From: a virus | Strand: one strand, 5' to 3' | Length of the DNA: 64,000 bases | Virus record (IMG/VR): IMGVR_UViG_3300023296_001674 | Shown: in pieces, positions 4,883 to 58,973 of the stretch | Layout of the letters: every line of letters begins with the position of its first letter | Position numbering within the stretch: the stretch's first letter is position 1 | Made by a program: the position numbers and the translations under genes | Notes under the pieces: model-generated | What the model saw: only the letters and a program-made list of their open reading frames with translations | Database searches by the model: none | What the model was told of the DNA's origin: nothing

Positions 4883-6088
4883 ATGCGCCAAGAATATGCA
4901 ATCGACATCGCAACCAATCCCGGCATTCATGCAATCGGCGTCATCGTCGACGTTTTGACGTTTACAAGCGACCAATATCACAACAGCGAAGACGGCGAAT
5001 CGCATTTAACGGATTCACTGTGGGATAATTTGTATCGGTTCTTACAGGTTACTGATCCAGTTAATAAGTATCTCATTGGCGTAGGCTCTGAAGTGCGCGG
5101 TGGGGCTGGTGTTCCATTGCCATATGTAATGCCTGGTTTAGATCAAGTTCACGAAGGCGATACCGTTAAATGGATTATGACTAATAATCTCATGGGTGCA
5201 ACCATTATCACAATGGATAAGATGGATGGCAACTCTGGACAAATAATTTATGACACCAACGGCAATCTTCAAATGGCATTTAGTCGTGGTTCAAGCACTG
5301 ATGGTCAAGATTTAACACGGCATTTCAAACGCATGAAAAATCTTCCCACTATTAATGTTGGCACCGATCTTCACACCAGTATAGCGGTTCGTGTTGAAGT
5401 TGAAATGAAAGAAGAAGTGTTTAATGATTTGAATGATCGGGGATTGATTAACAAGCGCAGTGGTGAAAAACAGAGTAATGCGAGAAATTACATCGGAGGA
5501 CAAATGAATTCCACCGAAGCAACGCAAATATTTTATGACAACGTTGATGTTATCGCATATGAGATTATGTTTCCGTTGATGGATACAAAAAAAGAAGAAC
5601 TTACCGCACTTGGTCTTTATGGCTTTACGGTTGTTAAATGGTCAGAACACATTGGTGGTACACTTGGTGATGATATGCTAACAGCCGCGCTTGAACAAGC
5701 ACATAAAACAACCCCTTGGGCGATTGATGGGTTTGTTATGATACCAAATGACCGCGCAGTTCGTGATGCAATTCCTGCACGCAAAGGAAGCAGCTTGAAT
5801 CCAGTACATACTAAAAAATTCAAGGTAGGGCAGGACGACAATGTTGCTGGAACGACAGTTATAAAAGTAGAATGGAAAGTATCTAAAGATGGATATTTAA
5901 AACCAACCGTATGCATTGATCCAGTTGATTTGGCAGGCGTTACAATATCAAAAGCAACGGGAATTAACGCTAAATATATATATGATAATAAAATTGGACC
6001 GGGTTCAAAAGTGTCAATAACACGAGCCGGTGATGTTATACCAAGGTTATTATCTAGTTCCCCGATGCCAGAACAAAATATGGACTAG
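4883..6088 (+). CDS. NAD+-dependent DNA ligase, N-terminal fragment (adenylation domain with KMDG lysine motif, plus OB fold)
   Basis: KMDG adenylation motif; OB-fold-like segment ...SITRAGDVIPRL; ends in TAG. Confidence 0.75.
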   Translation: MRQEYAIDIATNPGIHAIGVIVDVLTFTSDQYHNSEDGESHLTDSLWDNLYRFLQVTDPVNKYLIGVGSEVRGGAGVPLPYVMPGLDQVHEGDTVKWIMTNNLMGATIITMDKMDGNSGQIIYDTNGNLQMAFSRGSSTDGQDLTRHFKRMKNLPTINVGTDLHTSIAVRVEVEMKEEVFNDLNDRGLINKRSGEKQSNARNYIGGQMNSTEATQIFYDNVDVIAYEIMFPLMDTKKEELTALGLYGFTVVKWSEHIGGTLGDDMLTAALEQAHKTTPWAIDGFVMIPNDRAVRDAIPARKGSSLNPVHTKKFKVGQDDNVAGTTVIKVEWKVSKDGYLKPTVCIDPVDLAGVTISKATGINAKYIYDNKIGPGSKVSITRAGDVIPRLLSSSPMPEQNMD

Positions 6089-6132: not shown

Positions 6133-6951
6133 ATGAGCACCACTAACGAATATAATGATAATTATGATAAATGGTTTCATTCACAACTCGCTGAATTTGG
6201 CGAATATGAATGGTCTAAACCCAACTCTGATGGAAATCAAGTTGATTTGATTCTTGTTGATGTTGAAAATAGCGATGCTGCTAAAAAACAACAACTTATT
6301 GATTTTTTCTCAAAGTTGGGTGTTGAATTTCTTGCCCAAAAATCATTGATTAAATTATATGATGCAGGATTCAATATGCCGGAAGATATCATTAATGCAA
6401 CCGTTTCTGATATTCAATCAATTGTTGGCGAGGCGAATGGTCGCAAAGGAATGGCAAGCCTGAATGAAAAACTGAATCCAGTTGAACCATGGATGCTTGC
6501 AGGTGTTACCAAATATTTTGGGCGATCAATTGGTCGAAAGAAAATGAAAAAGATTTATGATGCTACTGGACATGTAAATGAAACATCAGTTTCAGAGTTA
6601 ATTAAAATTGATGGCCTCGAAATGAAGAGTGCTGAAAAAATTGTTGCTGGTTATGATGAATATGCTTCCTTCCTTACCCGCATCCATGATAAGTATACCA
6701 TCGCAGAGGTTCAAAATACGCCTATGGGTAGCGATTGGGAGAATCAGGTTGTGACATTCACTGGCTATCGTGATGCGGACGCACAAGCTAAAATCGAAGC
6801 ACAAGGTGGGCGTATTGGTAGCAGTGTATCCAGTAAGACTACATTGGTTGTTACGAAAGACCCTAATTCGACCAGTAGCAAAATTGTAAAAGCGAAAGAT
6901 TTGGGAATTGAAGTTATCGATCCCGTAGAACTTTATTCACGACTTAACTAA
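6133..6951 (+). CDS. NAD+-dependent DNA ligase, C-terminal fragment (HhH plus BRCT domain)
   Basis: BRCT-like VVTFTGYRDADAQAKIEAQGGRIGSSVSSKTTLVVTKDP...; lies in a different reading frame from the upstream part. Confidence 0.7.
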   Translation: MSTTNEYNDNYDKWFHSQLAEFGEYEWSKPNSDGNQVDLILVDVENSDAAKKQQLIDFFSKLGVEFLAQKSLIKLYDAGFNMPEDIINATVSDIQSIVGEANGRKGMASLNEKLNPVEPWMLAGVTKYFGRSIGRKKMKKIYDATGHVNETSVSELIKIDGLEMKSAEKIVAGYDEYASFLTRIHDKYTIAEVQNTPMGSDWENQVVTFTGYRDADAQAKIEAQGGRIGSSVSSKTTLVVTKDPNSTSSKIVKAKDLGIEVIDPVELYSRLN

Positions 6952-8367: not shown

Positions 8368-10575
8368 ATGAATACACTTTTTGGATTTAATAAATTACAC
8401 AACAGCATCGCATTACAGAACAAGCAGTCTGTTGTTATCGAAACTTTGTCTGGTGATATCGATGATTCACTTATTCTTGCAATCCTTACAGATATTGCAC
8501 AGTTTGGCTATACGCTAGACGGTAATGTTATCAGTGCGTTGAAGACGCAATCTGAAAATACATTGGTTGAGTTCCATAAAGAACTAACTGCACAATTGTC
8601 TATTATGGTTGGTGCACACGTTACGTATCGTCCATTATTCAAGAAATTCCCTAATGATATTCCTGACGATGCAGAATATTTCACTAAACGATTCATTGGT
8701 CATGTTACCAATTTATTTGGATTAACACCAGAAAATGTGGCACCACTTTCGTGTGGTCACGTCATTGATACTCGTTTATTCAACATGGATGATTTCGGCG
8801 CTTGCCCAATCTGTCAAATGCAGGTTGATGAAACCACGGCTGCGACTGATCGTCCATCGTTGGATGAATCGACACCATTTAAAATCATTGGCTTGGCTAC
8901 TAGCGACGATGTATACGCCATCTTCACAAACTTATTGTCGGCTAAAGCATCTATCTCTGCGGAGAATAAAGAACTAATCACCGCATTGGTTGCGGAGAGT
9001 AATGTGTTTAATTACATTCCCGATGTTATCCCAATGAAGGAAAATGTTGCGTTGATTGCTGGTTTGCTTGTTAAACACACTAATGAAGCACTTGATGTAT
9101 TGGTTAAGCACGTCAACACTTCAACTGATGTATTGCGCCTTGCTGTTCAATTAAATGATGGTGATGTATCACTTGCAGAACCAACCAAGTTTAAGTTGCG
9201 CAACAAAGAACGTCGTATAATCATGGGACTTCTGGATGCAGTTAACAAACCAGAAGAAGACATGCTACGTTATCGTATGCAATGGATTCGTTTGGCTGAA
9301 GTGTTGCACATTGGTTCAAAGCGCCATCGTTTTCCTAATGCATTTAATGCAGTGGACAAGTTGCGTAATGACGCCAAGTCGATTGAGACATTTAACAGCA
9401 AAGTTGAAAAGAATGTCCTTGTAGCAAAGGCAACTGGTTTAGATGATGGATTAATTAAACTATTGGCAACTCGCCCCGGTGAGTTTGCAAGACGTTTGGA
9501 TTTCATGTTGAGTAATATTGGCAATGTTGTTACGGTTCTTGACACATTCAAGTCTATTGTTGATAGAGTGGCTTCACCAATGTTGTTGCAAATGGCTTCG
9601 CACTTCAACACCCGAACTGAAGTTGCACCATTTCGTTATTTCTTACCGAAAGGCAACGTTGCAAAGATGCAAATAGTTGATGACACACGCGCAGTTCTTG
9701 ATCTTACGATTGTTAAATCAGTTGTTAAGATCATCAATGACGAATTAACAAAACGCTTTTCAACAATGGAAAGCCTTGGTAATGTTTTGATTGATCCGAT
9801 GCTTGAAAATTATCTTGTTCCATTGGCGCAACGTGCAGCGACTAAAAGTTTGGTTACGGTTGCGCGTGGCTCACGTATCACGTTTTCTGATAAGAACACC
9901 ATTCGTTTGTTCCTTTACTGGAAAGAAAATGCCGAGGTTGGACGCACCGATGTTGACTTAAGTGCGGTTGCATATGACCAAAATTGGGACTATGTTGAAC
10001 ATCTTTCTTACACCAACCTATCTGGTGTTGGCAGTGTCCACTCTGGTGATATTCAATCTGCTCCCAATGGTGCATCTGAGTTCATTGACTTCAATATTAA
10101 AGAAGCAATGGAACATGGTATTCGTTATGTAACGATGAACGTTCTTTCATATAGCGGTCAAGCATTCGACCTATTTGAATCAATCGCTGGAGTTATGGGA
10201 CGCGATGAACCATCAAGCGGTGAACATTATGAACCAACTACAGTTGAGAATAAGTTTGACGTTGGCGGTAACTCACGCCACAACATTCCGTTTGTTGTTG
10301 ATTTGAAGAAACGCGAAATCATTTGGACTGATTTGGCTGTGAGTGGTGGTGCATTCAATAACGTAGAACAAAGTTCAGGGGCTATTGTAATGATGTCTAA
10401 GGCGGCTGAAGCAATGGTTGACACTAAACCTACCATGATTGATTTGTTGCAACTACACTTCGATGCACGTGCCGACAGCGTTGACTATGAGCGTCAGCCT
10501 GATAAAGAATACGATACGGTGCTTGGTGTTTCTATGGCTTCTAATGTAGATGACATCCTAGCCAATTGGTTATAA
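8368..10575 (+). CDS. large protein with a TerD-like C-terminal domain
   Basis: GGAGG RBS; C-terminal TDVDLSAVAYD...GSVHSGDIQSAPNGASEFIDF resembles the TerD family. Confidence 0.6.
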   Translation: MNTLFGFNKLHNSIALQNKQSVVIETLSGDIDDSLILAILTDIAQFGYTLDGNVISALKTQSENTLVEFHKELTAQLSIMVGAHVTYRPLFKKFPNDIPDDAEYFTKRFIGHVTNLFGLTPENVAPLSCGHVIDTRLFNMDDFGACPICQMQVDETTAATDRPSLDESTPFKIIGLATSDDVYAIFTNLLSAKASISAENKELITALVAESNVFNYIPDVIPMKENVALIAGLLVKHTNEALDVLVKHVNTSTDVLRLAVQLNDGDVSLAEPTKFKLRNKERRIIMGLLDAVNKPEEDMLRYRMQWIRLAEVLHIGSKRHRFPNAFNAVDKLRNDAKSIETFNSKVEKNVLVAKATGLDDGLIKLLATRPGEFARRLDFMLSNIGNVVTVLDTFKSIVDRVASPMLLQMASHFNTRTEVAPFRYFLPKGNVAKMQIVDDTRAVLDLTIVKSVVKIINDELTKRFSTMESLGNVLIDPMLENYLVPLAQRAATKSLVTVARGSRITFSDKNTIRLFLYWKENAEVGRTDVDLSAVAYDQNWDYVEHLSYTNLSGVGSVHSGDIQSAPNGASEFIDFNIKEAMEHGIRYVTMNVLSYSGQAFDLFESIAGVMGRDEPSSGEHYEPTTVENKFDVGGNSRHNIPFVVDLKKREIIWTDLAVSGGAFNNVEQSSGAIVMMSKAAEAMVDTKPTMIDLLQLHFDARADSVDYERQPDKEYDTVLGVSMASNVDDILANWL

Positions 10576-10610
10576 GTATAAGCACGTTTTTCGAGAGCGT
10601 GTTCGCCGAA

Positions 10611-10647
10611 AAGTGCCCCATAGCTTAGATTGTGGGGCACTTTTTTC
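10611..10647 (+). terminator. rho-independent terminator
   Basis: GTGCCCCA...TGGGGCAC stem followed by TTTTTT. Confidence 0.7.
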
Positions 10648-10675
10648 TTGACAATTTATCACCATATGATACAAT
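10648..10675 (+). promoter_or_regulatory. sigma70-like promoter TTGACA-N16-TACAAT
   Basis: Immediately after the terminator. Confidence 0.55.
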
Positions 10676-12309: not shown

Positions 12310-13173
12310 ATGTCTAAAGATATTTATAACACTAAATTTATATTCGGTCAAGATTATCATGGATTTATTTATGAATGGGTTGATAATTCTAATGGTAAAA
12401 AATATATAGGATCGCATAAAGGGTCGATTGATGATGGATATATAGGTTCAGGAACATATTTTATTTCTGCTTATAAAAAAAGAACCCATTGTTTTAGTCG
12501 AATAATATTAGAATATATATCAAAAAATATAGATGATATATATACCATTGAACAAAAATGGTTAAATATGGTAAATAATATATCATCAAATGAATCATAT
12601 TATAATCTATCAAATAACGCAACAGGGGGAAATTCTGAAAAAAACTACGCACGAAAAAGAAATGGTGAATTTACTGAAAAAGAAATGATTGCACATGAGC
12701 GAAAAGCCAATGGTATATTTACACCAAAAGAACTAGAGTTTCATAAACGTCGAAAAAATAGATTTTTAAATGGTGATTATACAAAAGCAGAAAAACAGTC
12801 TTATATACGATCTAAAGAGCGAAAATCAGCAGGGAATTTTACAGATGCAGAAATTAAATATTTTAGTGAACAAAAAAAGAGAAAATCAAATGGTATATTT
12901 ACACCAAAAGAAATAGAGTTTCATAATAATCAAAGTAATCGGAAGTCGGCAGGAAATTTTACAGATGCCGAGTTAAAATGTTTAAATCTCGATAAAATAA
13001 GAAAATCAAAAGGCTTATTTACCGATGCGGAATTAAAAAATTTTAAGAACATGAAGGGAAAACGATGGCTTACCAAAGATTTTATCAATAAATTAATATC
13101 AAAAAATTTAATACAACAATATATTGATGCCGGTTGGATATTTGGAAAATATAAAAAAATCAATCCCAACTAA
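12310..13173 (+). CDS. GIY-YIG homing endonuclease with about 6 tandem NUMOD-like DNA-binding repeats
   Basis: GFIYEW...KYIGSHKG motifs; repeats G(N/I)FT(D/P)xE(I/L). Confidence 0.8.
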   Translation: MSKDIYNTKFIFGQDYHGFIYEWVDNSNGKKYIGSHKGSIDDGYIGSGTYFISAYKKRTHCFSRIILEYISKNIDDIYTIEQKWLNMVNNISSNESYYNLSNNATGGNSEKNYARKRNGEFTEKEMIAHERKANGIFTPKELEFHKRRKNRFLNGDYTKAEKQSYIRSKERKSAGNFTDAEIKYFSEQKKRKSNGIFTPKEIEFHNNQSNRKSAGNFTDAELKCLNLDKIRKSKGLFTDAELKNFKNMKGKRWLTKDFINKLISKNLIQQYIDAGWIFGKYKKINPN

Positions 13174-16100
13174 ATTTATCAATCCCATCAAAATCTATTT
13201 CACTTCCGTCTGATAATGTTAAACTTCCTGACATTTCTTCCGATGTTGGAAGATTGTTTGGATTGCTATCTGCCGTAAATGTTTCACCATCAACTGTTAA
13301 TGCCCACCCTTGTGTGCCTTCCATATTTAGTGTATCTGTTCCCTCGCCGCCCGATATCCAATCACCGCCACCAAATCCGTCGCCGCCTTCGCCACCGAAG
13401 ATAAACATATCATCGCCACCATTGCCCATTACGTGGTCATTAGCATCTGTTGCATCGTCGCTATCAAATGTATCATCTGCTTTTTTTCCTTTGTCTTTTC
13501 CATCTATTTCATTATATTCAGAACCGCCTTCACCACCCTCGCCGCCTTCACCACCATCTTTATCTTTTTTATCTTTACCTTTTCCACCTTCACCGCCTTC
13601 ACCGCCATGTCCATGCCCATGTGATCCACCTTCACCGCCTTCACCACCTTCATTGCCTTCAACGTCGATAATGGTCGTAGCGGTTCCGGTTCCACCTTCA
13701 CTGTCCACTATATTATATGTGAAACTATCTTCACCAGAAAATCCTTCATATGGCGTATAAGTCCATGTTCCATTTTCATTATCTATTATAATTCCATTTT
13801 CAGGATCGTCAATGCTGGTAATAGTTATAGTGTCGCCATCTAAATCTGTATCATTAGATAGCAAATCTTCAGAAGAAAACGTTATAGAATTATCATCATC
13901 AATATCAAATTCATCATCAACACCAAGAGGTGTGGTATTTCCTGTTTCATCTACTAACCACGTGGATGATTGTGTGTCAACAGATACAACAGATGCCGTA
14001 ACAGGTGTATCTCGTTCTATTTCTACTGTTCCATCTGAATACGTTAATGTGTTAACCGAAGTGTTTGATGTTTCTGTTGTTATGTCTGTAGTAGTTGTTT
14101 CTGTAAACACTCGATTAATCACAGTTGTTTTTGTTCCATCGTCATTTTCAACAATCGATTCATTATTTACAAATGTTATGGTTGATTCTGGTTCACTCGT
14201 TATAATATTTTCTTCTGTTTCTATGGTTGTAACAATTTCAGGATCAACATATTCGGTTTCGACATTAGTTAATGTTTCCGTTCGTGTATCTGAGGTTATT
14301 TCGCTATCAATGTTGGGTGTTCCATTTTCGACTTCAACCGTTCCGTCTGAATATGTTATTGTGCTGACGGGAGTTATCGTTGTGGTGGTTGTGGTTTCAG
14401 TCGCATATTCATTTGTGGTTGTTGTAGTAGTATCTATTTGTTCGCGGTTATTATCCGTATCGATAGTTGTATCACTTTCTATTATGTCGTTAGTTGTTTC
14501 CCATGTTTCATCGCCCACAACAGCATCGGTAGTGGTAACGTATTCAGTGGTTATTGTTGGTTCTTCATATGTAGTAACAATTTCGTCCGTGGTATCAACT
14601 CTTGATTCAGTTGTTGTATCTGCTGTAATAACAGGATCGTCCTGTTCAATTTCAACAGTTCCATCTGAATACGTAATGGTTGTTATTTGTGTGGTTGTGG
14701 TTGTGGTTGTTGTATCAGTTTCATAATTGTTTGTGGTTGTGGTCGTTGTATCTAATTGCTCACGGTTATTATCCAAATCATTTGAACGTGACACATCATC
14801 TTCGGTTGATGTTGAAATTAAGGTTTCATCGCCTACGACAACGTTGGTTGTTACTTCTTCTGACGTAACAATTTGTGGCTCTTCGTAAACAACGTTGGTA
14901 TCAGTTAACACTTCTTCTCTTGTATCGGTTGTAGGTTCAACTGTTTCAACTGGCGTTCCGTATTCTATTTCAACTGTTCCATCTGAATAAGTGATAGTGA
15001 TAACGGGTGTTGTTGTTACGGTTGTAGTTGTTATTGTATCATATGTATTTGTGGTTGTGTTGGTAGTATCTAATTGTTCGCGGTTATTATCCGTATCAAT
15101 AGTGCGAACAGTTTCTGATTCTGTTTCGGTGTTAGATAATATTTCATCGCTAACAACTACTGTTGTTTCATGCTCATAGGTTTCAACAATTTCAGGGTCT
15201 TCATTCGTAGTTATTGTTTCTGAAGTCACTTCATCGCGTGTTGATGTATCAGTGGTAGTTTCTATCGCTGGTGTGCCGTATTCTGTTTCTACAGTGCCGT
15301 CGCTGTAAGTTATGGTATGAACAGGCGTAGATGTGGTTGTGGTGGTTGTATCAACCGCATAGGTATCTGTGGTCGTTGTTGTCGTATCTACCCGTTCGTT
15401 ATTATATTCTGTTTCAATAGTTGTCACTACATTTTCTTCTGATGCTGTTCCAGTTTGATATTCATCGCCAATTGTATCCACTGATTGCACATCAGTCGTG
15501 ATTGTAATAACAGGCTCTTCTGTACTTGTGGATATATCAATTTCGCGGATTTCATCACGTGTTGATGTATCAATTTGAACTGTGTTATCGGTTGGTTCTG
15601 CGCGTTCGATTTCAATAGTTCCATCGCTATATGTAATGGTTTGAACTTCGATTGTTGTTGTTGTTTCCAATATGGGCGTTTCAAATGTATCTGTATATTC
15701 ACGCGTCACAGTAACTATTTCTTGATTATTATCTAAATCGTTAACACGCGATGATGAATCATAGAACTCTGTATTAGTTAAAGTTTCTTTGCCGTTGTGA
15801 AGGTCGGTTGAAATTTCATATGTGACAACAATGGTTGGTTCTTCATATGTGGTAACTATTTCATCGGCAATATCGGTTCTTGTTTCTGTATTTGTATTTT
15901 TTGTAATAGACGGATCGCCCTGTTCAATTTCAACTGTTCCATCTGAATAAGTGATAGTTATTACTGGTGTTATTGTGGTGGTAGTCGTTGTATCAATGGC
16001 ATAGTTATTCGTGGTAGTAGTTGTTGTATCTACTTGTTCACGATTGTTATCAGTGTCTATTATACGGTCAATTTCTGTCCCGGTTTCTGATCCAATTAGA

Positions 16101-17152
16101 ATTTCATTACCAATTTCATTTGATATTTCAGTTGTATATTCGGTTGTGATAACAGGTAGTTCTATATCAGTAGCAAATATTGCATCTCTAATCGCAACTG
16201 TTGTATCAACTGTGGTGTTGGATTCTATCACAGGGTCACCCACAATCGTTTCAATAGTGCCATCACTATATGTAATAGTTTCGGTTGGCGTTGTTGTTTC
16301 TGTGACCGTTGAATCAATCGTTGTGGTATCTGTATAATTACGAGTCGTTGTGACTATTTCTTGATTGTTTGCTAGATCATTTTCTTTTGAAACTACATCT
16401 TCGTATGTTGTTACAACACATGGATCATCGATAACTGTATTTGAAATAATTTCGTATGAAATTTCTCTAGACATCTCGGTCACTGGTTCTACAGCATCAT
16501 CGCCACCACCACCATTGGTGCCATTATCAATAGGAAACCCAAGATCGGGGTTAAGCACAGAATTAAGAATTGCGTCAAAGTCAATTTCAGGCATAACGTC
16601 TGTATTCGCGAGTGGATCATTTGGCACCTCGTCAACGCTTTGATTTACATCATTTATTGTAGAAAATCCGCTATCTTCCGCACGCTGCTGTTCTTCTTCG
16701 GCTACTTTTTTAAATACATCATCGCCATGCATTTCGCGTGTATCAAATATCAAACTGGCACGATCTATAGCATAATCTATTTGTTCTGATGTAAACCCAT
16801 TCTCAATTAATTCATTCCTTGTGTAACCATTGACGTCAATAGATACATTATTTATATCATTAAACGCTACTATATTATTTTCAGTATTGACATATATACC
16901 CAACGATGTCTGTATTACTGTGCCTTCTGTGATTAGTGCACTTAACAATTCCGCTTCTGTTAGTTGTGAACCCATGTGAATATTTTGTGAACCAGAACCA
17001 AACACATCTTCTTTATCGCCACCATCACCTTCGTGAAGTTGTTGTACCGATGCATCAAGGTCAATTTCATCTTCGGTCTGTAAGACAGTTAAATCATCAA
17101 GTATTGAGTGATTTTCGCGAACATCGTCGTCGTCATTTGTTATTTCAGCCAT
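13160..17152 (-). CDS. giant Thr-rich tandem-repeat protein with a cadherin-like domain and C-terminal RTX-type Ca-binding repeats
   Basis: About 8 repeats of 100-110 aa (TITYSDGTVEIE, DTDNNREQxDTTTTTTN); cadherin-like ITFSSEDLLSNDTDLDGDTITI...FSGEDSFTY; GGEGG runs and GNGGDDMFIFGGEGGDGFGGGDWISGGEGTDTL. Confidence 0.85.
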   Translation of the reverse strand: MAEITNDDDDVRENHSILDDLTVLQTEDEIDLDASVQQLHEGDGGDKEDVFGSGSQNIHMGSQLTEAELLSALITEGTVIQTSLGIYVNTENNIVAFNDINNVSIDVNGYTRNELIENGFTSEQIDYAIDRASLIFDTREMHGDDVFKKVAEEEQQRAEDSGFSTINDVNQSVDEVPNDPLANTDVMPEIDFDAILNSVLNPDLGFPIDNGTNGGGGDDAVEPVTEMSREISYEIISNTVIDDPCVVTTYEDVVSKENDLANNQEIVTTTRNYTDTTTIDSTVTETTTPTETITYSDGTIETIVGDPVIESNTTVDTTVAIRDAIFATDIELPVITTEYTTEISNEIGNEILIGSETGTEIDRIIDTDNNREQVDTTTTTTNNYAIDTTTTTTITPVITITYSDGTVEIEQGDPSITKNTNTETRTDIADEIVTTYEEPTIVVTYEISTDLHNGKETLTNTEFYDSSSRVNDLDNNQEIVTVTREYTDTFETPILETTTTIEVQTITYSDGTIEIERAEPTDNTVQIDTSTRDEIREIDISTSTEEPVITITTDVQSVDTIGDEYQTGTASEENVVTTIETEYNNERVDTTTTTTDTYAVDTTTTTTSTPVHTITYSDGTVETEYGTPAIETTTDTSTRDEVTSETITTNEDPEIVETYEHETTVVVSDEILSNTETESETVRTIDTDNNREQLDTTNTTTNTYDTITTTTVTTTPVITITYSDGTVEIEYGTPVETVEPTTDTREEVLTDTNVVYEEPQIVTSEEVTTNVVVGDETLISTSTEDDVSRSNDLDNNREQLDTTTTTTNNYETDTTTTTTTTQITTITYSDGTVEIEQDDPVITADTTTESRVDTTDEIVTTYEEPTITTEYVTTTDAVVGDETWETTNDIIESDTTIDTDNNREQIDTTTTTTNEYATETTTTTTITPVSTITYSDGTVEVENGTPNIDSEITSDTRTETLTNVETEYVDPEIVTTIETEENIITSEPESTITFVNNESIVENDDGTKTTVINRVFTETTTTDITTETSNTSVNTLTYSDGTVEIERDTPVTASVVSVDTQSSTWLVDETGNTTPLGVDDEFDIDDDNSITFSSEDLLSNDTDLDGDTITITSIDDPENGIIIDNENGTWTYTPYEGFSGEDSFTYNIVDSEGGTGTATTIIDVEGNEGGEGGEGGSHGHGHGGEGGEGGKGKDKKDKDGGEGGEGGEGGSEYNEIDGKDKGKKADDTFDSDDATDANDHVMGNGGDDMFIFGGEGGDGFGGGDWISGGEGTDTLNMEGTQGWALTVDGETFTADSNPNNLPTSEEMSGSLTLSDGSEIDFDGIDKFSWD

Positions 17153-17239
17153 GATACATCCCCTATATTAATATTATGTGCATGATATCAATATTTAAGA
17201 AATATGTCAATGAATATCAATGATTTGGTTCAGTCAAGA

Positions 17240-32373: not shown

Positions 32374-32739
32374 CTATCCTTTTAACTTACCCAACGCCAT
32401 TTCTACAAATAACTCCGCATCATCAAGAACTTTAAACACAAACACCGGATTGCTTGTCCATACATTACCCTTAACTATATCACCCGAATATGCACCCGAT
32501 ACCGGATATGCTAACTCTGCATATTCATCCGTGTAAATCATATCAACACTATAATCAATTGAATAACTGTCACACCAATAAATCATATTATTTATCGCCG
32601 CATATTTGTCATCACCATAACAAAAAGAACAAATCGATACAACATATCCACCATGTAATATATTAACAGCCTTCTTATATAGATTCTCATACCTGACATC
32701 ATGTGCCAAATAACTTGTTATTATACTACTTCCATTCAT
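32374..32739 (-). CDS. hypothetical protein
   Basis: 121-aa ORF. Confidence 0.45.
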   Translation of the reverse strand: MNGSSIITSYLAHDVRYENLYKKAVNILHGGYVVSICSFCYGDDKYAAINNMIYWCDSYSIDYSVDMIYTDEYAELAYPVSGAYSGDIVKGNVWTSNPVFVFKVLDDAELFVEMALGKLKG

Positions 32740-34403: not shown

Positions 34404-34478
34404 GACAGTTATGTCAAGAATTATAGATTGGCTTAAATCAGCCATTTCAATCGTGGTCTGCCGTGGGGAGGAGACGGT
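34404..34478 (+). repeat. direct repeat copy 1 (about 73 bp) flanking the inverted gene island
   Basis: About 85% identical to 36097-36169 (gacagttat..attatagattggcttaaa.cagccatt.caatc...ccgtgggg.gagac.gtt). Confidence 0.65.
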
Positions 34479-34505
34479 TGACATCACCAATAACTGTGAT
34501 ATAAT
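34478..34505 (+). promoter_or_regulatory. sigma70-like promoter TTGACA-N16-TATAAT for the island genes
   Basis: ggTTGACAtcaccaataactgtgaTATAAT. Confidence 0.6.
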
Positions 34506-37336: not shown

Positions 37337-38647
37337 TTATGTCAATTGGTTTAGGGATAAATCAACTATTCTATTAACCATATTTTGTATATCAGAATCT
37401 ATTACATGAAACAAATACTCGTTTTCTAAATCTACATCTTTAGTTTTTTTAAGTAAGCCATCGTCAAAGGCTGATTGATTGCGCATAGATTTATAACCAC
37501 CAACACGCTCACGCATGTCATCAATCAACCTAGTGGTATCAAGGATACCATCTTCATAATATAGATTGATACCAAGATTATTCAAATATGTGTATATATC
37601 AACATCGATTGTTAACAAATCCATATAACCATCATACTTACGCCAATGATAGTTAAGTTGACGGTTGAAGTATAAATCATACTTACCGCTATCAATATCA
37701 TTATACACTTGTAATAAATCTTTATGTAAATCATTTAAATTACACGACGTTATTCTTTCAAATATATCTTTATCAAATGTATTATCATCCATATTATGCA
37801 ATGGTGACATTTTATGATATATGGTGCATATAACATTACCAGTACTACCATCAACAGATATATTATTGACATTGAAAAGAGGTGCACAATGTCTGTAATA
37901 TGTCCGCAAATAAACAGTTATTTTATTGTCTTTGATTTCTATTCTAAAAAATGATGAAATTTTAAATAATTTACATAAATCATTATATATACATAGCATA
38001 TCAGCCGACATATTGGTGAACAAAGCATTAGTAAGATCAATGTCACACTTACGGATATAATTCCAAATGATTTGATTGTTATCTGATGTTAAATCATACA
38101 CGGCTGTATATTTTTTATCAGTCATAATAAAAATAGATGAATATAACCCATCGTTGTGGTTTAGGATGTTTTGTACATTTTTCATTATAGTAATAATTTT
38201 ATTTGATACAATATCGCGTGCTTGATGTAATAATTTATTATGTTTTCTAAATAGATCGCGTATACGAATGTATTCTATTTCTTCATTGGTTTTTTCTTTA
38301 TAAGTCCACTTTCCTGTAATTTTATGTTTATGTAATGATTTTTCCATGGCTATTCGTTCAGGTATGGATGCATTTAAAACTTTTTTAACAGCAATAGACA
38401 GCAATCCTGCATTAGACACATGAAACCATTCCTTTACTTTGATATCTTCGATGTGAAAATGAGAAAGTTGTGACTGTATTGCTTTTTCTGTTATTAGTGC
38501 ATCTTTTTCTGATCCAGTATATATTACTTTAAATGTGTCACCGGGACGATAATGATTATTACTTCTACTTTCTGGATTTGTGGTGATACCTGGAGTGACT
38601 TGTATTCCATTAGGATATTTTGTTTCATTGATGTATACGTAATGCAT
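37337..38647 (-). CDS. protein with an N-terminal T5orf172/GIY-YIG-like domain
   Basis: MHYVYINETKYPNGIQVTPGITTNPESR...; 436 aa. Confidence 0.55.
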   Translation of the reverse strand: MHYVYINETKYPNGIQVTPGITTNPESRSNNHYRPGDTFKVIYTGSEKDALITEKAIQSQLSHFHIEDIKVKEWFHVSNAGLLSIAVKKVLNASIPERIAMEKSLHKHKITGKWTYKEKTNEEIEYIRIRDLFRKHNKLLHQARDIVSNKIITIMKNVQNILNHNDGLYSSIFIMTDKKYTAVYDLTSDNNQIIWNYIRKCDIDLTNALFTNMSADMLCIYNDLCKLFKISSFFRIEIKDNKITVYLRTYYRHCAPLFNVNNISVDGSTGNVICTIYHKMSPLHNMDDNTFDKDIFERITSCNLNDLHKDLLQVYNDIDSGKYDLYFNRQLNYHWRKYDGYMDLLTIDVDIYTYLNNLGINLYYEDGILDTTRLIDDMRERVGGYKSMRNQSAFDDGLLKKTKDVDLENEYLFHVIDSDIQNMVNRIVDLSLNQLT

Positions 38648-46104: not shown

Positions 46105-46638
46105 ATGAGTGATGATACGATAGACTTTCCGGGAACTACGTCTAAAGCTCCGTCGAATGATCATGGTCCAATTATTGATTATAATACATTGATTCGTGCT
46201 GCTCATTTGAATGTTGTTAAAGACGCGATTCAAATCGTTTCGGATACTGGTCCTGCTGAATTCTTTAATATCAATATTACTTATGATTTGATGCACCCTG
46301 ATTCGGTATCTGAAGAATGGTTGTGGAAGAAATATCCTGAGAAGATTACCATTATACTTAACAACCAATATGAAAACTTACACGTTGAGGACACTGGCTT
46401 TCGTGTCACCTTACATTTCGGTGGTTCTCCGGTTGCGTTGTTTGTTCCGTTTGATTCTATACTCAGTTATGTTGATATGGTTACGCGGGTTATGTTTTCG
46501 TTTGAAGACCCACATGCTAATGAACCAGTTGACAATCCATTTGAATCGGTTGATACGCCAGATATTAAATTGGTTCCTGATGCTGGCGCGGAAGTTATAT
46601 CGTTGGACGCATTTAGGGATAAGAATAAAAAGGATTGA
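46105..46638 (+). CDS. SspB-like protein (stringent starvation protein B / ClpXP adaptor fold)
   Basis: IILNNQYENLHVEDTGFRVTLHFGGSPVALFVPFDSILSYVD resembles the SspB core (..NIAPRAVGNLELANDEVRFNARFGGIPRQVSVPLAAVLAIY). Confidence 0.5.
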   Translation: MSDDTIDFPGTTSKAPSNDHGPIIDYNTLIRAAHLNVVKDAIQIVSDTGPAEFFNINITYDLMHPDSVSEEWLWKKYPEKITIILNNQYENLHVEDTGFRVTLHFGGSPVALFVPFDSILSYVDMVTRVMFSFEDPHANEPVDNPFESVDTPDIKLVPDAGAEVISLDAFRDKNKKD

Positions 46639-52569: not shown

Positions 52570-52980
52570 ATGCGCGGCACAAAACCATTAGCCCCTATGT
52601 CGAACTGGCACCGGTTGTTGACCATGTTGAGTTTGAATGGTGGATCATTATACCGAGCACAACTGTATACTGCCAAACCTAAGATCAAAAAATATGTTGA
52701 TCATGACGGCAATACCAAATATAAATCAATTCCAGCAAAAGACCTTCACACTTATATCGATACTGGCAAATTGCGCAAAGTGACTTGTGTATCATCATTT
52801 GCGCCATTGTCATATGCATATGAGCATCGGGCGGAAAGCATGGGATTGGTTCATATTAAAAAATTCAATAATCGCAAATGGATTACGTTGTTGCCAAAGG
52901 GACGTGCCGTGTTGGCGATGTTGGATGTTGGAAAGAAATGGGTTCCAGAAACGAAAATTGAAAGGGAGTTTATTCGATGA
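52570..52980 (+). CDS. hypothetical basic protein
   Basis: RBS GGGAGGA before ATG 52570. Confidence 0.55.
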   Translation: MRGTKPLAPMSNWHRLLTMLSLNGGSLYRAQLYTAKPKIKKYVDHDGNTKYKSIPAKDLHTYIDTGKLRKVTCVSSFAPLSYAYEHRAESMGLVHIKKFNNRKWITLLPKGRAVLAMLDVGKKWVPETKIEREFIR

Positions 52981-53231
52981 GTAATATCTTTACAGCGCCG
53001 TTAGGGCTTGTATACGAAATCGACGATCAGAACTATATCACTACTTCCGTGACTATGGACTTAAATGAGATCATCGATACCAACAACGAAGGGTTTCTTG
53101 ATGCATTATCTATCTATGCTACAGATACTGAATTGTTAATGGATATTGATTATAAACTTCTGCGCATTGACGAACATGGTGCACTAGTGTTTAGAGTCCA
53201 TGGCGATTTATCGGCGATCACAGATGACTGA
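52977..53231 (+). CDS. small acidic protein
   Basis: ATGA overlap. Confidence 0.5.
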   Translation: MSNIFTAPLGLVYEIDDQNYITTSVTMDLNEIIDTNNEGFLDALSIYATDTELLMDIDYKLLRIDEHGALVFRVHGDLSAITDD

Positions 53232-53424
53232 TAAACCAAAATCTAAACGGGGTCGAAAGAAAAAGGAACCGGAACCTCCTACCCCGACGAATTTGGTTCA
53301 TTGTACATTGATGGCATGCGGCATGGTTCATCTTGATCCAGCCAAGTGTCCCAAATGCGGCAATGATGATTCACAGCGCCCACTTAAGTTTGTAGGTGTT
53401 CCCATTTATATGACAATTGTTTAG
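53224..53424 (+). CDS. small basic zinc-ribbon protein (CPKCGND)
   Basis: ORF. Confidence 0.45.
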   Translation: MTDKPKSKRGRKKKEPEPPTPTNLVHCTLMACGMVHLDPAKCPKCGNDDSQRPLKFVGVPIYMTIV

Positions 53425-53433
53425 GAGTAGCAT

Positions 53434-53925
53434 ATGACTAAAATGATTTACACTGTAGTGCGCCGTCCCAAGGTTGGACGTCATGGGTTAACCACCATTG
53501 GGTGGGCGGAAGAATGTGGCAGAGAAGCGATTGTCACGGGTGGTTATTTACATACTCGACGCACGTTACCGGGGGAACAAACTTATTACACGGCAATCAT
53601 GACAAAAGCGAACTTTGATAGATGGCTCGGCGACAAATTTGAAACCCGTGCACAAGCCGCGTTCGCTATATGGCGTCTATATTATAAAAATGAGCGTGCG
53701 AAACGTGATCAAGATAAAGCGAATGAAGCGAATGGAAAACATGCACGTGCGGTCGGGCGGAAACATAAACGCGAACATCGTGCGACGCCTGAAGGACAAG
53801 AAGAACGCCGGTTGATGTTAAATCGTAAAGCAAAAGAAAAGCGTGATAACATGACGGATGAACAGCGCAAGGCGATCAATGATAAACTTAAGAAACGTCG
53901 TGCGCATAAGAAAGAATTCGGTTGA
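53434..53925 (+). CDS. basic Lys/Arg-rich protein (possibly nucleic-acid binding)
   Basis: 163 aa; RBS AGGAG. Confidence 0.55.
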   Translation: MTKMIYTVVRRPKVGRHGLTTIGWAEECGREAIVTGGYLHTRRTLPGEQTYYTAIMTKANFDRWLGDKFETRAQAAFAIWRLYYKNERAKRDQDKANEANGKHARAVGRKHKREHRATPEGQEERRLMLNRKAKEKRDNMTDEQRKAINDKLKKRRAHKKEFG

Positions 53926-53958: not shown

Positions 53959-54032
53959 GGGGGCATAGCTCAGTGGTAGAGCAGTGGGTTCTAAACCCTT
54001 TGTCGGGAGTTCGACTCTCCCTGCCCTCGCCA
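53959..54032 (+). tRNA. tRNA with anticodon CUA (amber suppressor, tRNA-Sup); the backbone looks tRNA-Trp/Gln-like with G73 and an encoded CCA end
   Basis: Cloverleaf folded by hand: 7-bp acceptor stem, D arm GCTC/GAGC, anticodon loop TTCTAAA with U33 and A37, T arm GGGAG-TTCGACT-CTCCC, ends GCCA. Confidence 0.8.
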
Positions 54033-58945: not shown

Positions 58946-58973
58946 TTGACAATTGGTTCAGTTAGTCTATAAT
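58946..58973 (+). promoter_or_regulatory. promoter TTGACA-N16-TATAAT
   Basis: tTTGACAattggttcagttagtcTATAAT. Confidence 0.6.

Follow-up and report, generated by a model that had tools for sequence, protein, structure and literature searches.

RTX adhesins begin with an N-terminal anchor, which is followed by tandem extender repeats and C-terminal ligand-binding domains and then by RTX repeats and a type I secretion system (T1SS) signal (PMC6650083). PDB entry 5IX9, the N-terminal domain of the Marinomonas adhesin MpIBP, has been the template for the LapA retention module, which plugs a TolC-like pore (bioRxiv 10.1101/198937). Among phages, host-surface modification against superinfection is a recognised strategy of jumbo phages (PMC7824862), and FecR proteins are found in a CsgF/CsgG curli-like operon of Pelagibacter phage HTVC008M and Methylophilales phage Melnitz (PMC9004378). 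Here we analysed a gene in a 64-kb stretch of viral DNA (64,000 nucleotides, IMG/VR record IMGVR_UViG_3300023296_001674; the whole stretch is called the window below). The gene is an open reading frame (ORF) on the minus strand (13160..17152) that encodes a protein of 1330 amino acids (aa). What is new here, our analysis suggests, is an adhesin-type repeat protein encoded by a phage, with a new family of extender domains and a degenerate RTX element. Tentatively, and as a possibility rather than a probability, we favour the reading that its product is an adhesin-like, calcium-dependent rod, made early in infection and extracellular, which is no part of the virion and acts at the surface of the infected cell.

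A preliminary description of the window had proposed a Thr-rich ORF of this length containing eight tandem units of about 105 aa, a cadherin-like domain of the type found in RTX adhesins, and GGEGG and HGHGHG runs. These proposals were borne out. The ORF is intact, with an ATG start and a TGA stop, and Thr accounts for 21% of its residues. The eight units recur with a period of ~106 aa, each scoring 89-124 bits against a hidden Markov model (HMM) of the unit, and the runs can be read directly off the sequence. The protein has a predicted mass of 144 kDa and is extremely acidic, with 302 Asp and Glu residues vs 45 Lys and Arg, giving a net charge of ~-257. It contains one Cys. No Sec signal or transmembrane segment was found in the 1330 aa, where the maximum 19-residue hydropathy is 1.17. 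It therefore shares with T1SS substrates the lack of an N-terminal Sec signal, the acidity and the near absence of Cys. The V/S-rich ORFs on the plus strand across 13160..17152 are antisense shadows of this big gene.

The cadherin-like domain matches the Cadherin_5 family (PF17892) with an E-value of 5.5e-23 and 81.1 bits against a cutoff of 26.5, over model positions 2-97 of 98. In the PDB, the sequence search matched 36gk_A alone, a cadherin-like domain of an 'RTX protein' (E=8.8e-6). The domain contains a conserved ND.D.DGD motif and is predicted to combine an Ig-like β-sandwich fold with this acidic, calcium-binding type of motif. It is followed by a low-complexity spacer (aa 1165-1240), in which the AlphaFold2 predicted local distance difference test (pLDDT) score is 30-40; GHG, GSG and KDKD spacers in related proteins are its counterparts.

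The eight Thr-rich units are anchored on an invariant YSDG at aa 295, 402, 508, 616, 722, 828, 934 and 1038, and are 26-62% identical to one another. Tandem Repeats Finder detected no 318-bp DNA repeat under the units, so the repetition exists at the protein level only, and their Thr runs use mixed codons. These two properties suggest that the unit duplications are old and have been kept by selection. AlphaFold2 was run on aa 872-1330 with an 11-row alignment. The predicted unit (units 7 and 8, pLDDT 90-95) consists of four antiparallel strands of 14-30 residues and a short hairpin at TITYSDGTVE. Hydrophobic alternation is missing in the repeats (lag-2 autocorrelation -0.08) and hydrophobic residues make up 26%. 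Together with these values, the prediction implies that the unit has no core and forms a solvent-exposed sheet or ribbon instead of a sandwich. A search of PDB structures with the predicted unit returned no Ig-like or other match, and Pfam, NCBIfam and PHROG hold no model for it. A word-indexed profile search with the unit gave one match, with poly-Thr words swamping the search, and an exhaustive HMM search of 1.84 billion cluster representatives with a unit profile of 23 sequences was used instead. The unit was present in only 20 clusters. Membership in the Tcp10_C / G-box family (PF07202) was considered and rejected, as the match reached 33.5 bits against a cutoff of 36 and was limited to the 12-15-residue hairpin motif (TITYSDGT). 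As far as these searches reach, the Thr-rich unit of ~106 aa represents a new domain family, very rare and previously undescribed. Its unusual β architecture is confidently predicted, which makes it a good target for structure determination whatever its function.

Sequence comparisons indicate that the 1330-aa protein is intact, conserved and a member of a modular family. Counting repeat copies in the relatives, a check proposed in the preliminary description, showed that these proteins, encoded on other phage contigs, hold 2-5 units vs eight here, the 8-unit protein being the largest. The order of parts in the family is a ~65-aa acidic leader, a FecR-type domain or another region, the units, an optional Cadherin_5 domain, a Gly/His/Ser/Lys-rich spacer and a C-terminal region. 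The leader is kept in P0003, P0005, P0006, P0007, P0025 and P0033, whichever domain comes next. It is followed by the FecR-type domain in P0003, P0005, P0006 and P0025, and by another region in P0033, P0007 and the 1330-aa protein, while P0002, P0009, P0015 and P0026 have no leader and open with the FecR-type domain. P0033 is built like the 1330-aa protein but with two units, and is the only detectable homolog of its N-terminus. This similarity, at aa 13-119 with the leader included (E=2.6e-9), is the sole one of the N-terminal region, with which a large-database search gave no match. The AlphaFold2 model of the region is poor (pLDDT 47.6), and only a helix pair at aa 112-131 reaches ~71. The sequence of this helix pair (~16760-16819, minus strand) is YTRNELIENGFTSEQIDYAIDRA. 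At aa 118-130 there is a weak resemblance (E=0.12) to the repeat of Ltp (PF07553), the superinfection-exclusion lipoprotein of phage TP-J34, which we note as a lead only.

The FecR-type module of the relatives connects the family to known adhesins. Its profile matches PDB 5IX9 with an E-value of 8.2e-8, and 6 of 8 relatives match the NCBIfam model NF033682, 'retention module-containing protein', the best with an E-value of 3.1e-11. Judging from these matches, the N-terminal domain of many relatives is a homolog of the LapA/MpIBP retention module known from T1SS adhesins. This homology is the strongest argument for an adhesin and for its secretion, and it is invisible from the sequence of the 1330-aa protein alone. 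The partners of the Thr-rich unit in other proteins are also informative. The unit is fused to subtilase domains in P0029, P0034 and P0037, and the bacterial protein P0038 combines a lipoprotein-type signal, a subtilase domain, the unit and an outer-membrane-barrel-like ending. The subtilase fusions and the P0038 lipoprotein fit a role of the unit as an extracellular stalk module.

The C-termini of the relatives have features of their own. A motif, NNG(W/F)GNGDQDAPGNSxxNNNAEN, is strongly conserved in P0003, P0005, P0006, P0002, P0009, P0026 and P0028, and neither Pfam nor NCBIfam has a model for it. Many members end in a Trp (...NYDW, ...DYNW, ...TTEW, ...SFNW, ...NGNW, ...NIIW), and the 1330-aa protein ends in ...FSWD. 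The conserved motif or the terminal Trp of the relatives could be a sorting or docking signal.

The location of the gene argues for early expression. The preliminary description had placed it in an early or accessory block of a phage, and both parts of this placement are supported. In the window, 39 sigma-70 promoters match the consensus in at least 11 of 12 positions, vs 3.2+-1.9 in shuffled sequences (~12-fold), and their strands follow the orientation of the genes; one lies directly upstream of the big gene. Such a dense promoter array is, as far as sequence can tell, what a textbook early region looks like, here in a huge phage that has not been cultured, and by analogy with the early regions of T4 or T5 we infer that the host RNA polymerase transcribes the genes of the window. 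Examples from the array are 17738-17711 (minus), 20221-20193 (minus), 29195-29168 (minus), 34478-34505 (plus) and 58946-58973 (plus). Many of its promoters have the TG of an extended -10 element, and the strands diverge near 39 kb and 13 kb. The genes of the window include rIIA, rIIB, an NAD-dependent DNA ligase, HNH and GIY-YIG homing endonucleases, SspB-like and T5orf172 genes and many small ORFs. The big gene is the last of a leftward array of small early-type genes, with the NAD-dependent ligase ~6 kb further. The window yielded no virion genes.

The exact protein sequence is present on contigs of 570,549 and 570,750 bp, which indicates that the phage is huge. The window matches, in reverse orientation, roughly 41-105 kb of a ~570-kb contig (ENA ERZ27315719 k141_202852). 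The phage is remote from all cultured ones, its rIIA being at most ~30% identical to those of Roseobacter, Vibrio and XacN1 phages. Megablast and tblastn searches of 50,697 phage records with the locus and the protein gave no match, a scan of IMG/VR with the 1330-aa protein gave no confirmed relative, and the protein had no match in PHROGs or NCBIfam. A marine origin of the phage is indicated by a related cluster, one member of which was sampled by TARA Oceans (<0.22 um fraction).

The relatives are encoded in similar neighbourhoods. P0025, on a 118-kb contig, lies between a deoxynucleoside monophosphate (dNMP) kinase gene and genes for NAD-dependent ligase, DnaB, primase and PolA; it is separated from its upstream gene by 1 nt and is operonic with the dNMP kinase. 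P0033 is surrounded by T7-kinase-like genes, Gad2 and a metallophosphatase gene, P0015 adjoins gp32, gp59 and a cell-wall hydrolase gene on the T4-like contig L003, and P0005 lies among small ORFs and sugar-modifying genes. In the five contigs, no family member is directly flanked by head or tail genes, and the neighbours are early, replication, accessory or anti-defence genes. Sigma-70-like promoters are located 50-58 nt upstream of three of the five family genes, including P0005 and P0015. In two of the five contexts (L002 14439-18428 and L006 1-6770), nucleotide-sugar, glycosyltransferase and Asp/Arg β-hydroxylase-like genes occur within 10 kb; the sugar genes encode UDP-glucose dehydrogenase, DegT-like and sulfotransferase-like proteins, epimerases and GT1/GT4 glycosyltransferases. 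No genes of these nucleotide-sugar, glycosyltransferase or hydroxylase-like types were seen in the 64-kb window of the 1330-aa protein. Glycosylation or hydroxylation of the Thr/Asp/Asn-rich proteins is a possibility.

Taken together, the cadherin-like domain, the subtilase partners, the retention module of the family, the acidity, the scarcity of Cys and the lack of a Sec signal suggest a protein built for a calcium-rich extracellular milieu. Of the readings, an adhesin that the infected cell deploys is the best supported, by early-type transcription, non-structural neighbourhoods and the layout of an RTX adhesin. The host RNA polymerase would transcribe the big gene early in infection. The protein would leave the cytoplasm C-terminus first through a TolC-type type I system of the host, or be freed at lysis, and Ca2+ in seawater would rigidify its cadherin-like and RTX-like parts. 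The eight units would act as a stiff spacer and hold the cadherin-like domain out from the infected cell. By binding a surface ligand, this domain could mask receptors, leading to superinfection exclusion or keeping progeny off debris; alternatively, infected cells could be stuck to neighbours or particles. Since the 1330-aa protein has no retention module, it would be released, not tethered.

A number of observations weigh against the early, secreted adhesin. The retention-like module is not present in the 1330-aa protein itself, which has no NCBIfam match and an N-terminus resembling P0033 alone. In the relatives, the NF033682 matches fall below the curated cutoff, and the module has further matches to models of generic FecR domains and of leptospiral lipoproteins. 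T1SS ABC-transporter, membrane fusion protein (MFP) and TolC genes were not found among the scanned ORFs of the 64-kb window, which is part of a genome of ~570 kb; likewise, no genes for LapG/LapD or for a cognate set of ABC transporter, MFP and outer-membrane factor were seen in the window. With respect to timing, contig L007 has no sigma-70-like promoter and L003 and L007 each have a late-like motif (AATAAATA), and sigma-70-like promoters are not strictly proof of early timing in an uncharacterised phage. On L003, a baseplate cluster ends 2.6 kb from P0015.

The RTX-like block belongs to the same discussion. The preliminary description had recognised GGxGxD nonapeptide-like repeats near the C-terminus and taken them for an RTX calcium-binding module of the kind that marks T1SS-secreted proteins in bacteria. 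The motifs are real. Three full nonapeptides (GNGGDDMFI, GGEGGDGFG and GGEGTDTLN, regular-expression matches at aa 1243, 1253 and 1268) and a truncated fourth are present, and the three motifs exceed the number in composition-matched shuffles of the C-terminal 166 aa (P about 5e-4). A profile made from genuine bacterial RTX blocks aligned to aa 1243-1276 with an hhalign E-value of 1.2e-4 and a probability of 55%, and the block ends 54 aa before the C-terminus. As a module it fares worse. The Pfam HemolysinCabind model (PF00353) gave 11.9 bits vs a threshold of 23 (E=0.24) with the isolated C-terminus only, and no match with the whole 1330-aa protein. The repeats are spaced by 10, 9, 6 and 9 residues, and these indels break the 9-residue register of a β-roll. 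AlphaFold2 modelled no β-roll, with pLDDT <50 over the block, and the best PDB sequence match of the region, the AlgE6 R-module, was insignificant (E=3.3). In the relatives, the motif had zero regular-expression matches, with isolated motifs only in P0025; their homologous stretch reads MFxFG..GD..W and has a probability of 0.04% against the RTX profile. The block at aa 1243-1276, as read from these comparisons, is RTX-like, degenerate and private to this protein, and no hallmark of the family. The inference that it marks T1SS secretion is weaker than proposed: ~3.5 degenerate repeats, sub-threshold in Pfam and missing from all relatives, cannot by themselves mark a T1SS substrate. To our knowledge, there is no reliable sequence model for T1SS secretion signals. 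The C-terminal tail that follows the block is weakly similar to the C-terminus of P0025 (E=0.025).

The preliminary description had offered two roles, a virion decoration or fibre and a secreted modifier of the host surface; the gene context and the promoter lean against a virion component. As a virion fibre, whisker or head/collar decoration, the protein would dock through its leader, the units would be the shaft, and the cadherin-like domain and C-terminus would make reversible, calcium-dependent contacts with glycans or proteins of the host surface, in the manner of Hoc-like or collar-fibre proteins. We find this somewhat doubtful, yet it is a strong competitor of the adhesin reading. In structural comparisons, many BFVD matches are phage Ig, tail or fibre proteins and the best one is a collar protein, and phage Ig-like domains are classically found on virion proteins; there is, however, no PHROG or virion-protein family match, and trimerisation or fibre-type domains were not detected. 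The overall layout would be suitable, as a conserved N-terminus, variable distal parts and a repeat number of 2-8 are typical of fibres and decorations and the units are predicted to be elongated β structures, but it is not obvious what the retention-module homology of the relatives would do in a virion. Jumbo phages commonly carry adhesion domains on their virions (PMC7824862). As for gene location, the T4-like contig L003 has a baseplate cluster within 10 kb, whereas no family member is directly among head or tail genes and the big gene has a strong sigma-70-type promoter within a dense early-type array.

Two other explanations place the protein outside the virion. A soluble extracellular decoy, which would build up in the cytoplasm, have no secretion route of its own and be freed only at lysis, could coat receptors on debris and neighbours or chelate Ca2+, and so spare the progeny. 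It would leave both the retention-module-like N-terminus of the relatives and the RTX-like block near the C-terminus unexplained, and we regard it as quite improbable, even though the extracellular-type domains, the extreme acidity, the lack of a Sec signal, of a transmembrane segment and of secretion genes nearby, and the missing retention module in this member are all consistent with it. An intracellular polyanion that never leaves the cell, acting as a nucleic-acid mimic or a scaffold, would account for the net charge of ~-257 and the early-type promoter. This seems very improbable to us, because the Cadherin_5 domain and the partners of the unit (subtilase, lipoprotein signal and retention module) are of the extracellular type and there is no similarity to known DNA mimics; moreover, we know of no mimic protein that approaches 1330 aa, all known ones being far shorter. 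The adhesin deployed early from the infected cell remains our preferred reading.

The features of the locus are collected in the following table. The preliminary description had pointed out the 3' overlap between the big gene and a GIY-YIG gene. The overlap is real, convergent and 14 nt long, and it looks like ordinary compact packing beside a mobile endonuclease.

Table. Features of the 1330-aa protein and its gene (positions in the window; residues in the protein).
Feature	Residues (aa)	Position	Strand	Remarks
Free-standing GIY-YIG homing endonuclease gene		12310..13173	+	phrog_314, E=1.7e-14; GIY...YIG visible in translation
C-terminal tail	1277-1330	13163..13324	-	ends ...IDFDGIDKFSWD; 54 aa; low confidence in AlphaFold2
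Degenerate RTX-like block	1243-1276	13325..13426	-	GNGGDDMFI-F-GGEGGDGFG-GGDWIS-GGEGTDTLN
Gly/Glu/His/Lys-rich low-complexity spacer	1165-1240	13433..13660	-	GGEGG runs, HGHGHG, KGKDKKDKD; Gly 34%
Cadherin_5 / Big_9-type Ig-like domain	1072-1164	13661..13939	-	calcium-binding-type motif NDTDLDGD
Thr-rich unit 8	976-1081	13910..14227	-	unit HMM; AlphaFold2; most divergent unit
Thr-rich unit 7	872-977	14222..14539	-	unit HMM; AlphaFold2 pLDDT 90-95, strands 23-30 residues
Thr-rich unit 6	766-871	14540..14857	-	unit HMM
Thr-rich unit 5	660-765	14858..15175	-	unit HMM
Thr-rich unit 4	554-659	15176..15493	-	unit HMM
Thr-rich unit 3	446-553	15494..15817	-	unit HMM
Thr-rich unit 2	340-445	15818..16135	-	unit HMM
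Thr-rich unit 1	233-338	16139..16456	-	unit HMM
Variable N-terminal region	66-232	16457..16957	-	occupies the place of the relatives' FecR/retention-like module
N-terminal leader	1-65	16958..17152	-	motif LD(D/E)(L/M/I)TV(L/M)Q ... A..QQ ... GSQ.I; alignments
Ribosome-binding site GGGGA		17159..17163	-	6 nt before the ATG at 17152; read from sequence
Sigma-70-type promoter, extended -10		17182..17210	-	TTGACA-17-TGaTATCAT; 11/12 consensus + TG; ~30 nt before the start codon

Other parts of the window also deserve mention. A tRNA with anticodon CUA at 53959-54032 (plus strand; ARAGORN, labelled tRNA-Pyl) is an amber suppressor. TAG is the rarest stop in the window, ending 13 of the 139 ORFs of at least 70 aa, and one plausible in-frame TAG read-through site is located on the minus strand near 32376. 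Recoding of TAG elsewhere in the huge phage, for example in late genes, is possible. Read-through of TAG is irrelevant to the big ORF, which stops at TGA. The NAD-dependent ligase is split into an ORF with the adenylation and OB domains (4883-6088, plus strand), which ends in TAG, and one with the HhH/BRCT domains (6133-6951, plus strand), 44 nt apart and in different frames, while the ligase in the relative contig L006 is a single ORF of 587 aa. It may have arisen naturally, by a frameshift or through an error of assembly. Further genes encode a 735-aa protein with a prokaryotic RING finger (8368-10575, plus strand; Prok-RING_4, phrog_33734), a homolog of the SspB-like ClpXP adaptor (46105-46638, plus strand) and a 436-aa protein with a T5orf172/MUG113 domain (37337-38647, minus strand).

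A wider version of our preferred reading would be that T4-like, T5-like and huge marine phages encode their own LapA/RTX-style adhesins, which are made early and exported by TolC-type systems, the relatives being tethered and the present member released. Their shaft would be the new Thr-rich, coreless hairpin domain, and they would re-engineer the surface and adhesiveness of the host. In this full form the proposal is unlikely; if true, its consequences would be receptor masking, superinfection exclusion or the capture of neighbouring host cells. Should infected cells deploy these proteins as adhesins, it would follow that phages hijack type I secretion and control the sticking of their hosts to particles, to cells and to competing phages, which would bear on marine particle formation and superinfection exclusion.

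Comparison with described systems places the 1330-aa protein closer to some than to others. T4 Hoc-type proteins and the collar proteins of Agrobacterium phages 7-7-1 and Milano differ from it, since the big gene is outside the structural module and has an early-type promoter, and its product has no PHROG or virion family match and consists in bulk of Thr-rich units, not Ig domains. With the FecR proteins of HTVC008M and Melnitz, the connection is through the relatives. The FecR/retention-like module of P0003, P0005 and P0015 is 33-35% identical to these proteins, and both groups belong to marine large myophages and point to a phage-directed activity at the cell envelope. Signal peptides are present and Thr-rich units absent in the proteins of HTVC008M and Melnitz, and the 1330-aa protein has no FecR module. 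The FecR-domain proteins of the curli operons (L004, HTVC008M, 9560-10666; L005, Melnitz, 52712-53821) are homologous to the module that matches 5IX9. CsgG, CsgF and curlin gave no tblastn match in the window, in L002 or in L003. A curli (type VIII secretion) link of the big gene was rejected, as it has neither a FecR module nor csg genes; the connection concerns the module, not the gene. The retention-domain homology links the FecR proteins of curli operons to RTX adhesins and may help to explain these enigmatic operons.

The RTX adhesins LapA, MpIBP and FrhA are the systems to which the protein compares best. Like them, it has no Sec signal, is very acidic and near Cys-free, and contains a long tandem array of extenders, Gly-rich linkers and, towards the C-terminus, both an Ig domain of the calcium-binding, cadherin-like type and GGxGxD-type motifs. 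Its closest similarity to these adhesins, by sequence and by structure, is in the cadherin-like domain. Unlike them, the protein is a phage product, the retention module is missing from this member, and its RTX block amounts to ~3.5 degenerate repeats under the Pfam threshold. The relatives, instead of RTX, have the C-terminal motif NNGWGNGDQDAPGNS..NNNAEN followed by MFxFG..GD..W. The extenders of LapA-type adhesins are Ig-like β-sandwich repeats, whereas those of the 1330-aa protein are Thr-rich units predicted to form long hairpins. The order of parts in RTX adhesins is reproduced by the relatives, and by the 1330-aa protein in all except the anchor.

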